A stretch of 64,000 nucleotides of DNA from an uncultured Clostridia bacterium (GCA_944388035.1 CALXHF010000001.1:17593-81592), one strand, 5' to 3'; counted from the stretch's first letter, positions 49,191 to 60,137 are shown. Numbers and translations are program-made. Notes: generated from the sequence alone by a model not told the origin.

Positions 49191-50603
49191 ATGAAAGAAA
49201 AAATTAAAAAAAATAAAGAAAGGGGAATAATAACAATGGAAAAACAAAGGCTAAGAAAGAATAAAGGTATTACTTTAATAGCACTTGTTATAACAATAAT
49301 TGTCCTTCTAATACTTGCAGGAGTAAGTATAGCAATGCTAACAGGAAATAATGGAATATTAAGTCAAGCACAAAATGCTAAAAAACGAACAGATATTGCT
49401 TCGGAAAAAGAAGCTGTAAGCCTAGCATACACAACAGCATATGCTAAAAACAATGGAGAAGGAAAAGTAACTTATAGTCAAATGCAAGATGCTTTAGATG
49501 ATAATGGAACAAATGCTGAAGCAAGTGGAAATATAATAGTATATTTTCCAGATAGTGAAAGATATTATACAGTAAAAGATGGAGTTGTAGAAGGACCATT
49601 TGAAGAAAAACCAGAGACAGAATTAAGTGCAGTCGAAATGTTTGAAAATGGACAAAATTGTGATAAGCAAGATGGAACTTGTACTAATGAAACACATTTG
49701 CATATAGGGGATTATGTGAATTATGAAGAACCAACATCAGGAGAACCTTGTGTTATTGGCCCAAGCCAAACAGGTGTTGAGAATTACCAAGTATATTCTT
49801 TAGAAAATAATGATTTAAATTGGAGAGTATTAGGGATAGAGGAAGAAAACGGAGAAAAAAGATTAAAATTAGTTGCAGATAGTCCTGTAAAAAGAACGGG
49901 AGTTAGAGAAACAGAAGAAGGAGAAACAATAACTGAAGGTGTAGGACCATATTTTGATATATATGGTGCAGAGGGATATTTGTATGCTCCAGATGCAATG
50001 GATGCAATAAGTCAAATATTTAAAAATGATGATGCTTATGAAGCAAGAAGCATGAATATTAATGATATAAATCAAGCACTTGGAAAAACAACAGATGAAC
50101 AAATAAAAGAAAAAAATTTCTTAACTATGCAAGGATTTATTCAGTATAAAGAAAGTTATGGACCATTTGAAGGTCAATGGACTCCAGAAGATTGGCTAAA
50201 ACAAAATAGACCTACTTCTATAGTATCTGGTGAAGTTAGTGCTTATGCTTATTTGATAGATAATGGAAGTTTGCCTTCAGAACTTAGTGGAATAGCAACA
50301 ACTGTTGAAAATGAAAGATTGAGAAGTATGCTATTTGATAATGTAGAACCTGAAACAGGAAAAGCATACTGGCTGGCTTCTCGTGGTGTCTATGCTCTTT
50401 CAGGCGATTCTTATGCTAGCTTCGGATCTGGCGTTGTTACTTCGGAAGACGGTATAACCGTTGCAGGTGTAGGCGACTATGCGTTCAATTCGAATGGTTA
50501 CGAGTTTGGCCGCTCTGGCTATGCGGCTGTGCGCCCCGTAGTTATTCTAAATTCTGATGTCTTAATAGAAAAAATAGAGGATCAACCAGATAGTTGGCAA
50601 TAA
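49191..50603 (+). CDS. Type IV pilin / pseudopilin-like protein (class III leader ...RKNKG|ITLIALVITIIVLLILAGVS) with a large C-terminal region ending in a GC-rich 'YWLAS...RPVVILNS' module
   Basis: A basic leader ends in Gly and is followed by a ~22-aa hydrophobic helix, as in a prepilin. It lacks the usual Phe+1/Glu+5. The C-terminal ~130 aa are homologous to the C-terminal halves of ORFs 58125, 58751 and 59475. The start codon is uncertain (49173, 49191 or 49236). Confidence 0.5.
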   Translation: MKEKIKKNKERGIITMEKQRLRKNKGITLIALVITIIVLLILAGVSIAMLTGNNGILSQAQNAKKRTDIASEKEAVSLAYTTAYAKNNGEGKVTYSQMQDALDDNGTNAEASGNIIVYFPDSERYYTVKDGVVEGPFEEKPETELSAVEMFENGQNCDKQDGTCTNETHLHIGDYVNYEEPTSGEPCVIGPSQTGVENYQVYSLENNDLNWRVLGIEEENGEKRLKLVADSPVKRTGVRETEEGETITEGVGPYFDIYGAEGYLYAPDAMDAISQIFKNDDAYEARSMNINDINQALGKTTDEQIKEKNFLTMQGFIQYKESYGPFEGQWTPEDWLKQNRPTSIVSGEVSAYAYLIDNGSLPSELSGIATTVENERLRSMLFDNVEPETGKAYWLASRGVYALSGDSYASFGSGVVTSEDGITVAGVGDYAFNSNGYEFGRSGYAAVRPVVILNSDVLIEKIEDQPDSWQ

Positions 50604-50680
50604 AAAAATATAAACAAAATTTTGACTCTATTATGTTTTTTCTTAACTTTTTTGAAAGTTTATTTTTAGGACAAAAAGGT

Positions 50681-50727
50681 AATGTGAAGTTAGAATAGTT
50701 AATTTTTGGTAGTTCTAACTTCACATT
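50681..50727. terminator. Perfect 15-bp inverted repeat (aatgtgaagttagaa...ttctaacttcacatt) between the convergent pilin-like gene and tsaB; probable bidirectional terminator
   Basis: Read directly. The loop is 17 nt. Confidence 0.5.
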
Positions 50728-50751
50728 TGAAATTTATATATTATTTTTTAT

Positions 50752-51508
50752 TTAAAAAGGAATAATATCTTCTTTTTCTTCTAGTTGTCTTTGTGCTTGT
50801 GGCTTCTTTAAATATAAAGGTAAAATATTGTTTATTTGTCTATCAGGTGTTTCAAATTCTATTCCAGAATTATATAATTCTAAACCGCAAAGTCCTAAAT
50901 AATAAGAATTTAAAAGGTTTTGCTTTTCATTAGAAAAGTGAGCATAAGGAATAGTTTTTTCTATGTCATTTTTATATTTTGTTGTAGCGTCTCCTGTAAA
51001 ATAAATATTACCAATTTCATTACTATCTTCTATATAAGTATCAATAATAGAAAGAGTAGCTTTTACAGTTTCTGCTTGTGGTTCTATTAAAACATCTAAA
51101 ATATCATCATCAGTTTTTTTGTATAAAGCAAAATAACAATTATCATTTTTACAATCAATCATAGAACAGATAAGTGAATTATTAGGTAACTTATCACTTA
51201 TTTGTCTTGCTAAAGTCTCTAAAGAAGTAACACCAACAATAGGTATTCCTTTACTATCATAAAAAGCCTTAACAGTTGCAACTCCGATTCTAATACCTGT
51301 AAAAGAACCGAGGTCCTATATCACAAACAATTAAATCAATATCATCTAAAGAAAGATTAGTTTTATTAAAAATATCATTAATTGTAGGCATTAGAGTAAT
51401 AGAATGAGTATTATTGCTAATAGCATCTAATTTACAAATAAGGTCGTTATCATCTAAAATAGAAACTCCGCAAATATTACTTGAAGTATCAATACTAAGA
51501 ATTTTCAA
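50752..51508 (-). CDS. tsaB: tRNA threonylcarbamoyladenosine biosynthesis protein TsaB, read through an extra sense C (+ strand G 51310; CCT-C-GGT)
   Basis: N-terminus MKILSIDTSSNICGVSIL..., then IVCDIGPGSFTGIRIGVATVKAF once the C is skipped. As written it reads ...GPRFFYRY*. In-frame CGG is not tolerated here. Confidence 0.65.
51310..51310 (-). other. Extra sense-strand C site (CCT-C-GGT) in tsaB
   Basis: See that feature. Confidence 0.6.
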
Positions 51509-51927
51509 TTATAAACCTCCTTATATCATCATTATTTTCATCTTTTTCAAAAGTAATATGAATATAGTGTTTAGGAAGGCTATCCAAAATTAATTCTCCC
51601 CACTCAATTAGACAAATACCATTTCCAAAATATTCATCTCCACCAATTTCATAAAACTCTGAAGAATCTGAAAGTCTATATACATCAAAATGAAATATAT
51701 TTATCTTGTCATTTTTATATTCATTAACAATAGTAAAAGTAGGGCTAGAAATTTCATTTTCTAAACCAAAATAAGATAAAAAACCTTCTACAAATTTAGT
51801 TTTACCAGAACCGAAGTTCACCAGTTAAAACAATAATAGCATTTTTATCAACTTTAGAAGCAAAATCTTTTGCAAAATTTCTTGTTTCTTCTTCACTATT
51901 TGATGTAAATATAAAAGTATCAATCAT
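51495..51927 (-). CDS. tsaE: tRNA threonylcarbamoyladenosine biosynthesis ATPase TsaE, read through an extra sense C (+ strand G 51813; CTT-C-GGT)
   Basis: With the C skipped it reads MIDTFIFTSNSEEETRNFAKDFASKVDKNAIIVLTGELGSGKTKFVEG.... The P-loop GELGSGKT is restored only then; as written it reads GELRFW*. Confidence 0.65.
51813..51813 (-). other. Extra sense-strand C site (CTT-C-GGT) in tsaE
   Basis: See that feature. Confidence 0.6.
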
Positions 51928-52105
51928 AAAAAACTCCTAAAATATTGTTAAATTATCTTTAAAAAATGCTTTATTTAAAGACAAAGATATTATAATATAA
52001 AAAAGTAAAAAAATCAATTAAAAGGGTTGATAAAAAATAAAAAATGTAATATAATTGTAAAGAATTTGTAACAAAAAAGAAATAAAAAGTAAGGATGGGA
52101 AAATA

Positions 52106-59361: not shown

Positions 59362-59391
59362 AAATAAGACCTCTAAATAGGGGTCTTATTT
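59362..59391 (+). terminator. Terminator hairpin aaataagacc / ggtcttattt (cassette terminator copy 1)
   Basis: Read directly. The same hairpin recurs at 60096-60137. Confidence 0.5.
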
Positions 59392-59393
59392 GC

Positions 59394-59422
59394 TTGCAAA
59401 ATTATGTAAAATATGATAAAAT
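59394..59422 (+). promoter_or_regulatory. Promoter copy 2: TTGCAA, 17-nt spacer, TGaTAAAAT (extended -10)
   Basis: cttgcaaaattatgtaaaatatgataaaat. Confidence 0.5.
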
Positions 59423-59474
59423 CTAAATTATCAGCAAAAGCTGAATAAAAAAGTGCTTAGAGAAAGGAAGGAAG

Positions 59475-60089
59475 ATGACAAAAGAAATTGTTAGACTAGA
59501 GGATATGCCTTCTACCATTACAGTAAGTGAACTACCAAGAGTAATTATTGTTCCAAACCCAAGAGATAGAAAGGTTGTAATTACACCAGAAGAAAGTGGA
59601 ATTGATGAAGAGCAAGTTTTTACAAGCGATTGCTTGCCAGATGAGATTCTATATAAGTTTCTTGGTATGGTTCAGTATCCAGACGGAAGTTATTACCCAA
59701 AGTATGTAGCAAATGTTGTAACATCACAAGAATTAGGACTGAAAGGAAAAGAAGGAGCAGAAAACAGTGTAGAAGTAATGAACAAGATTGTTTTTGGACT
59801 TACTTGGCAAAAAGGTATGCTAAGGGCTAAAAGTGTTAAAAAGTCCGATTTGAAGTTTTTTGATTATGAAAAAGAATGTTTTAAATATTGGCTAGCTTCG
59901 CCTGGTGTCGTTATCGACGACTCTCTCTGCGGCTTCGGTCCAGGGGCTGTGTTTAATGGTCGTGCGGAGACTGGTGGTGGCTTGTTCGGTTCTAATGGCG
60001 ATTCCTATGATTTTTGGCTAGGTATTCGTCCTGTAATGCTTCTAGCTTCTAAGATCCAAATGGATAAACTTCCTTTGGTAGAACTCTAA
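59475..60089 (+). CDS. 'YWLAS-module' family protein, paralog 3 (GC-rich C-terminal module)
   Basis: 204 aa. The N-terminal half is about 45% identical to paralog 1 by eye (NPRDRKVVITPEE / NPGNRKVWIDTYE; ...LTWQKGMLRAKSVKKSDLKFFDY / ...LTWQEGMLQAGSVKRSDLKYFDY). The C-terminus is YWLASPGVVIDD...GIRPVMLLASK. Confidence 0.5.
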   Translation: MTKEIVRLEDMPSTITVSELPRVIIVPNPRDRKVVITPEESGIDEEQVFTSDCLPDEILYKFLGMVQYPDGSYYPKYVANVVTSQELGLKGKEGAENSVEVMNKIVFGLTWQKGMLRAKSVKKSDLKFFDYEKECFKYWLASPGVVIDDSLCGFGPGAVFNGRAETGGGLFGSNGDSYDFWLGIRPVMLLASKIQMDKLPLVEL

Positions 60090-60095
60090 GTGTTA

Positions 60096-60137
60096 ACAAA
60101 TAAGACCTCTAAAATAGGGGTCTTATTTGTGTTTTAG
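60096..60137 (+). terminator. Terminator hairpin acaaataagacc / ggtcttatttgt plus gtttt (cassette terminator copy 2)
   Basis: 12-bp stem, 11-nt loop, U-run. Confidence 0.6.

Follow-up and report, generated by a model that had tools for sequence, protein, structure and literature searches.

Introduction

Diversity-generating retroelements (DGRs) act through the RNA of a template repeat (TR), which is reverse-transcribed by the DGR reverse transcriptase (RT) with misincorporation opposite template adenines. The cDNA then replaces a variable region (VR), and non-adenine positions are copied faithfully. AAC and AAT codons of the TR therefore become NNC and NNT in the VR. Here, we analyze a 64,000-nucleotide stretch of DNA from an uncultured Clostridia bacterium (GCA_944388035.1, CALXHF010000001.1:17593-81592; hereafter, the window), in which a type IV pilin-like gene and the last gene of a tandem three-gene cassette (P1, P2 and P3) carry GC-rich C-terminal modules. 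We consider it very probable that both modules are DGR variable regions on C-type-lectin-fold domains, rewritten by an element elsewhere in the genome.

The closest described systems differ in their accessory genes and in the proteins that they diversify. In DGRs of the MutS-like (MSL) type, Architecture D, avd is accompanied by a small MutS-like accessory gene; the Legionella element is an example (Wu et al. 2018, NAR 46:11, PMC5758913). The Treponema denticola DGR has an HRDC accessory and lipoprotein targets, namely TvpA and seven remote targets (summarised in PMC5758913). In Bacteroides, DGRs diversify the tip adhesins of Type V pili (bioRxiv 10.1101/2024.11.15.621889). For the locus described here the mechanism is likewise a known one, and nothing known about it is changed; the family of gut Clostridia proteins concerned is undescribed.

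Results

Adenine-specific variation in a remote pilin-like gene

The pilin-like gene lies at 49191-50603 on the + strand, with an alternative start at 49173, and belongs to a family of more than 7,800 homologs, all metagenomic. Among orthologs that are 87-95% identical (P0107-P0115), variation is almost confined to the C-terminal module. In two fetched loci, L010 and L011, one of these, P0114 (87% identity to the window protein), has downstream of it, on its own strand, genes for a MutS_I protein (151 aa) and a bAvd protein (PF22296, 120 aa), a 190-nt repeat of the module and an RVT_1 RT, the full-length form of which has 317 aa (P0227). This is a canonical DGR with the avd plus MutS-like architecture, and the same cassette order recurs in L014, L015-L017 and L023, in housekeeping chromosomal contexts. 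The repeat in L010 and L011 translates as ...GVYANSDDSYANFGPGIVNTEDGITNAGVGNNTFNSNGNENDNSDNAAVRPV, with Asn (AAC or AAT) at the sites that vary in the proteins. All 22 in-VR mismatches between the L010 TR and its own VR fall at TR adenines. The RT family comprises 2,423 proteins at E<1e-40, the few named ones being annotated as Clostridia or Clostridiales metagenome-assembled genomes (MAGs), and appears to be abundant in Clostridia MAGs.

In the window, the corresponding VR occupies 50370-50541 of the + strand, with diversified sites from about 50397 to 50527. Its 3' boundary is a GC-rich segment common to the TR, GTGCGCCCCGTAG, directly after which the homology of TR and VR stops. Against the L010 TR, a sequence of a different genome, the window VR shows 85% identity, and the mismatches comprise 23 at A and a few non-A changes. 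Comparison within the lineage is afforded by L024 and L025, which carry a 95%-identical ortholog, P0107, at the window's own chromosomal locus. The gene order (dCMP deaminase, GNAT on the - strand, DUF362, a 69-aa open reading frame (ORF), the pilin-like gene, a 136-aa ORF on the - strand, and TsaE) is common to all three, and identity is 96.5% over 8 kb. Within the 172-nt VR the window and L024 differ at 25 positions, 24 of which are A in the L010 TR. With flanks so nearly identical, differences almost confined in this way to TR-A sites indicate that diversification occurred while the gene sat at its remote position. Four non-A deviations from the L010 TR (CGT, GAAT, TCT and GCT) are common to the window and L024, which points to a slightly different TR of this lineage's own. 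Judged by these alignments, the VR status of the window's pilin-like gene can be regarded as shown.

The place that the gene occupies (49173-50603) is a variable site among close relatives. In L002 and L003, with near-identical P1 and P2, this slot holds other genes, encoding a DUF285 protein of at least 435 aa (L002, 1-1244) and a 361-aa protein (L003, 48-1133). Downstream of the DGR RT of L023, in opposite orientation (2302-3160, - strand), there is a second small MutS_I gene (131 aa) beside the C-terminus of a gene that, judged by eye, resembles the Rpn/Transposase_31 family. A Transposase_31 gene also lies upstream of the target in L010. These MutS_I and Transposase_31 neighbours may bear on cassette movement.

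Architecture of the pilin-like protein

The pilin-like protein consists of an N-terminal hydrophobic helix (KG|ITLIALV), a small β head and a C-terminal C-type-lectin-fold domain, with the long N-terminal α1 helix packed on the small β-sheet of the head. Set against the prepilin motif G|[FIM]TL[IL]E, the N-terminus has Ala where Glu5 is usual. The Pfam N_methyl match (E 0.0054, 16.7 bits) is under the cut-off of 21.2, and 15 of 47 family members match weakly. Comparison of the family profile with PDB sequence profiles returned the N-termini of geopilin, MshA and PilE1, again weakly (E 0.01-0.3). Because the motif is atypical in lacking Glu5 and the Pfam match is below the cut-off, "type IV pilin-like" refers here to structure and does not assert family membership.

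P3 matches C-type-lectin-fold proteins, among them TvpA, TaqVP and Mtd, which are DGR variable proteins, and so does the C-terminal domain of the pilin-like protein. The VR is at the C-terminus of the target, within this fold. The pilin-like protein is presumably a surface-displayed or pilus-displayed adhesin.

P1 to P3 are free-standing copies of the C-terminal domain

The cassette genes P1 (58125-58724), P2 (58751-59356) and P3 (59475-60089, 204 aa) all lie on the + strand, and a signal peptide is absent from each of the three products. An earlier sequence-only reading of this DNA had located these ORFs and the pilin-like gene correctly, and had taken P1 to P3 to be mutual paralogs, which agrees with identities of 46% between P1 and P3 (E 4e-55) and 29% between P1 and P2 (E 1e-20). 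Its further claim was that they share a C-terminal module with the pilin-like protein. The two are indeed homologous, P3 being 34% identical to the C-terminus of the pilin-like protein over 94 aa (E 1e-8), but the homology spans the whole small protein and not the module alone: alignment of the P3-family and pilin-like-family profiles with hhalign (probability 99.4%, E 4e-21) pairs P3 residues 27-202 with pilin-like residues 164-447. Thus, P1 to P3 are free-standing copies of the entire C-terminal domain, beyond the YWLAS...RP module.

No described family had been recognised for these proteins, and Pfam and NCBIfam scans of the four proteins and 47 family members returned no domain except the weak N_methyl match. 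The P3 family, which comprises 38 clusters, all metagenomic, has no Pfam match in any of them. P3 itself is identical to P0039, a protein encoded on contigs as long as 263 kb. The lack of a family model does not extend to the fold, which is that of the DGR variable proteins, and relatives carry the canonical DGR cassette. Pairwise comparison of the four modules at the nucleotide level, suggested as a way to find gene-conversion tracts, revealed no common tract longer than about 25-56 nt, at the conserved YWLAS codons, and none beyond about 25 nt between any P module and the pilin VR.

In related strains the cassette is always flanked by mutL on one side and by two membrane-protein genes (482 aa; 229-232 aa) on the other. 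The number of P-family copies ranges from three in the window to as many as six in L009 among the strains compared (L001, L002, L003, L007, L008 and L009). The cassettes of these strains hold several paralog types, of which the P3 type alone is hypervariable.

Some P-family copies are broken: L006_g2 is frameshifted, and L001 has fragments of 78 aa and 93 aa. Within 90% clusters (P0001-P0097) the N-terminal ~60 residues are mosaic, with MTKGIVRL..., MANGIVRL... and MAQGIIRL... found on identical C-terminal parts, which suggests frequent recombination among tandem paralogs at their 5' ends.

P3 carries the substitution pattern of a DGR target

Alignment of the P3 family shows that the first ~140 residues are well conserved and that discrete hypervariable positions follow YWLASPG. 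The residues at these positions are almost all D, N, S, G, C, Y, F, A, V, I, L, H, R or T, the set encoded by NNC and NNT codons. When seven P3-type orthologs at syntenic loci are aligned by codon, variable codons (GTT/GCT/TAT; CTC/TAC/GGC/TGC; CGT/ATT/TTT/CAT/GCT/AGT) are interleaved with invariant blocks (TTC GGT CCA GGA GCT GTG and TGG CTA GGC GTT CGT CCT). Within the 36 codons of the module, three or more nucleotides occur at 10 first, 14 second and 2 third codon positions; the corresponding counts over the 137 upstream codons are 10, 6 and 7. In the window, the hypervariable codons (59910-60014) sit amid invariant blocks in a putative VR at 59889-60038 on the + strand. From this substitution pattern we strongly infer that P3 is a second DGR target, as a candidate and not a demonstrated one. 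In the modules of P1 and P2 (37 codons each) the counts are 0, 0 and 0, and the P1 module is almost unchanging among orthologs of six strains. On these alignments, P1 and P2 are static, non-diversified siblings.

The P3 VR spans 49 codons, from W to the V of VRPV, and the pilin VR 57 codons. Two VRs so unlike in length and sequence need two different TRs. An exhaustive protein search with the module retrieved N-rich, TR-like ORFs of the exact P3 length class: P0369 (MRLASPGVNVDSDNANFGPGNVNDGNANSGNNLFNSNGNWNANELGVRP), whose RDNIETN tail is also that of the L010 TR ORF, and the similar P0363. It also retrieved pilin-like proteins with a P3-like VR (P0349-P0351, ~59% identity). Together these indicate that a second DGR subclass, with a P3-like TR, exists in related organisms.

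Two candidates for the missing TR were rejected. The P1 module differs from the P3 VR at non-adenine positions and was ruled out as its TR. The pilin TR was ruled out as a template for P3 by length (57 versus 49 codons) and by unlike 3' ends. In L006 the inferred TR has an apparent second match (1698-1850), which most probably represents the VR of the frameshifted paralog L006_g2 and not a TR.

DGR template repeats are annotated as small N-rich "proteins" in public collections (P0363, P0369, P0368 and P0372; L010, 12264-12551). Such TR "proteins" can be retrieved with a VR query and could be used as a TR catalogue. Other metagenomic targets, in L026 (3898-4100), L027 and L028, have VRs of P3's 46-codon ASPGV...GVRP class (WLASPGVRTGEIFAGFGPGGVLTGRVYGGGNNLFNSNGNWFANKLGVRPVV); as these VRs are unlike each other at discrete sites, the class is widespread.

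The composition anomaly is a loss of adenine

The two modules stand out in composition, as the sequence-only reading had observed. No other 150-nt window of the 64 kb is as GC-rich (0.52 and 0.527; mean 0.273, standard deviation 0.054), and the GC content at third codon positions rises within them from ~0.1 to 0.4-0.5. Of the 20 windows of 150 nt with the least A on the + strand, 19 lie inside these modules, in which A falls to 0.145 (pilin) and 0.124 (P3), the lowest values in the window (150-nt mean 0.431, standard deviation 0.069); the lowest-A windows of the two, at A 0.12-0.15, have z-scores of -4.0 and -4.5. T stays at 0.32-0.36 in both. The homologous modules of P1 and P2 are not A-depleted (A 0.27-0.28; 0.27 in P1). 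The anomaly consists in the specific loss of adenine rather than in an overall rise of G+C.

What registers as GC-richness is the avoidance of adenine in a sequence copied from a DGR template repeat. The scaffold codons of TR and VR avoid A, through GGC, GCG, CGC and TCG, because any adenine would be scrambled, and in a genome of 27% GC the module therefore looks like a GC-rich island. A-poor islands at gene 3' ends can thus flag remote DGR targets when the retroelement itself is out of view.

Organization of the cassette

The P genes have their own promoters, ribosome-binding sites and terminators, on the + strand. A first promoter block (58042-58095; TTGCAA, 17-nt spacer, extended -10) comes directly after the terminator of the upstream gene (58014-58051), a hairpin of -20.1 kcal/mol. 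Its duplicate at 59386-59439, ahead of P3, is 80% identical. The terminator hairpins at 59360-59392 (-18.7 kcal/mol, z -5.6) and 60096-60130 (-21.1 kcal/mol, z -7.2) have identical arms, and no shuffled sequence folds as well as either. The duplication of promoters and terminators that had been read from the sequence is therefore real, and it fits unit-wise duplication. A promoter scan of the cassette gave no score above shuffled expectation, and it is the duplication of the block that points to promoter function. P1 and P2 are probably co-transcribed, since a gap of only 26 nt and a ribosome-binding site separate them.

Elsewhere in the window, a TsaB-like N-terminus (72 aa, MKILSIDTSS...) and a separate 136-aa ORF adjoin TsaE at 50752-51508 on the - strand. 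The arrangement is kept in L002, L003, L024 and L025 and may represent a split or degenerate tsaB. At 52106-53117 an mreB-like gene appears as overlapping ORFs of 80 and 289 aa; it is likewise split in L002 and is a single 336-aa gene in L007. A frameshift or an alternative start is possible.

Discussion

We propose that a DGR core (MutS-like gene, bAvd, TR and RT), located outside the window on another part of the chromosome, would act in trans on both genes as remote targets. Target 1 would be the pilin-like protein and target 2 would be P3, one of the tandem free-standing domain copies, and in each the VR would form the ligand-binding face of the C-type-lectin-fold domain. That the core lies outside the window, and that the DGR is active at present, we infer from the comparisons above.

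Several observations weigh against this proposal. The window contains no RT, bAvd, MutS-like gene or TR, by an ORF scan for YxDD, tblastn with the relatives' proteins and blastn at word size 7 for the TR. The TR used in the adenine test is accordingly that of another genome, the cognate one being outside the window, and the pilin VR has one private non-A change (GGATCT). For P3, searches of the window, of 28 fetched loci and of three public DNA collections (genome_contigs, metagenome_contigs and viral_contigs) yielded no cognate TR; in the collections, TR/VR pattern scans returned nothing, or unrelated VRs only. There was no second TR around nine P3-family loci or five GTDB MAG loci, or downstream of the L023 RT, and no DGR core within 10 kb of any P3-family locus examined. 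The window's P3 VR is altered at several positions that are invariant in other orthologs (GGG, AAT GGT, GAT and GGT ATT), a Glu codon (GAG) at one variable site is not an NNC/NNT product, and only two P3 VR alleles occur among 12 near-identical proteins. The P3 VR may be static, slow or decaying in this lineage.

Several of these observations are what one would expect if both VRs were relics, that is, former DGR targets in a genome where the core has been lost or silenced and the modules are frozen and slowly decaying. The missing core, the deviations of the P3 VR, its two alleles across dozens of contigs and the private change in the pilin VR all suit such a history, which is possible but, in our view, unlikely. 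The pilin VR differs at 24 TR-A sites between strains with 96.5% identical flanks, which places diversification within the lineage and in the remote context. In addition, the non-A positions of the P3 VR are kept across orthologs that are only 67-78% identical overall, which suggests continued copying from a conserved TR.

For P3 alone, ordinary diversifying selection on exposed loops, through point mutation and recombination and with no retroelement, would account for the TR not being found, and the paralogs do recombine. We consider this improbable. Point mutation under selection would hardly place three or four nucleotides at codon positions 1 and 2 among seven sequences while adjacent third positions and the interleaved blocks stay invariant, nor would it explain the extreme A depletion of the module. 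The domain is homologous to a proven DGR VR, whereas P1 and P2, with the same fold and location, display nothing similar.

The sequence-only reading had favored recent acquisition of the modules, or their conversion, from a higher-GC donor genome. A local GC of 0.5 in a genome of 0.27 and the raised third-position GC do invite this explanation, but the loss is specific to adenine and T is retained, the boundaries of the anomaly coincide with the TR/VR repeat, strains differ at TR adenines, and an equally A-poor TR is encoded by the same AT-rich organisms. A foreign donor is thus very improbable, and the composition is better described as TR-templated adenine loss. The same reading had suggested, as a second option, a diversification system that relates the free-standing modules to the pilin tip, by loose analogy with pilE/pilS; the idea of diversification was right, and the analogy fails. 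That P1 to P3 are silent donor cassettes recombining into the pilin-like gene is scarcely credible, despite the common domain, the tandem copies of varying number and N-terminal mosaics that reflect recombination among the paralogs themselves, because no P module has a nucleotide tract in common with the pilin VR beyond ~25 nt, the VRs differ in length (49 versus 57 codons), P1 to P3 are genes with their own promoters, ribosome-binding sites and terminators, and the TR explains the variation of the pilin VR site by site.

Returning to the proposed diversification of both genes by a DGR, what is notable is that the targets are remote, that the pilin-like family is very large and uncharacterised, and that a signal-less, free-standing paralog is apparently also diversified. 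The analysis points to more than 7,800 proteins of uncultured gut Clostridia, without a Pfam or NCBIfam model, in which a type IV pilin-like architecture carries a DGR-diversified lectin-fold tip. Alongside them stands a small family of free-standing domain copies in which one paralog type alone is diversified. As to function, we can offer only a speculative and rather doubtful suggestion: the signal-less P-family proteins might be soluble, interchangeable binding modules that work with the pilin-like adhesin, with a second DGR diversifying P3 through the TR class of the P0349-P0351-type target; alternatively, P3 might be an intracellular diversified sensor. If the suggestion were true, an adhesin on display and a separate protein copying its tip domain would evolve together under one retroelement, and further variation, at a slower pace, would come from units of promoter, gene and terminator that duplicate in tandem and recombine.

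Comparison with known systems

Comparison with the MSL-type DGRs reveals the nearest match in organization. Relatives of the window have the target, a MutS_I protein (131-151 aa), bAvd, TR and RT on one strand; substitution is adenine-specific, and the VR is at the C-terminus. Points of difference are the type IV pilin-like N-terminus of the target, the host, which belongs to an uncultured, AT-rich lineage of gut Clostridia, and the window itself, which holds targets only and no core. The Treponema denticola DGR, with its HRDC accessory and lipoprotein targets, differs in that here two VR classes need two TRs and one target lacks a signal peptide. Neisseria pilE/pilS also has a pilin with a hypervariable C-terminal region, but there variation arises by RecA-dependent gene conversion from silent cassettes, whereas here it would arise by reverse-transcription-based adenine mutagenesis, with no common nucleotide tracts. 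In the proteins that are diversified, the locus has a recently described counterpart in the Type V pilus adhesins of Bacteroides, which are also diversified by a DGR: in both gut bacteria the DGR acts on the distal binding domain of a protein that is pilin-like. The Bacteroides proteins are Type V lipoprotein pilins and their DGRs are borne on integrative and conjugative elements, whereas the Clostridia protein, known from sequence alone, has a type IV-like N-terminal helix and is encoded in a housekeeping chromosomal context.

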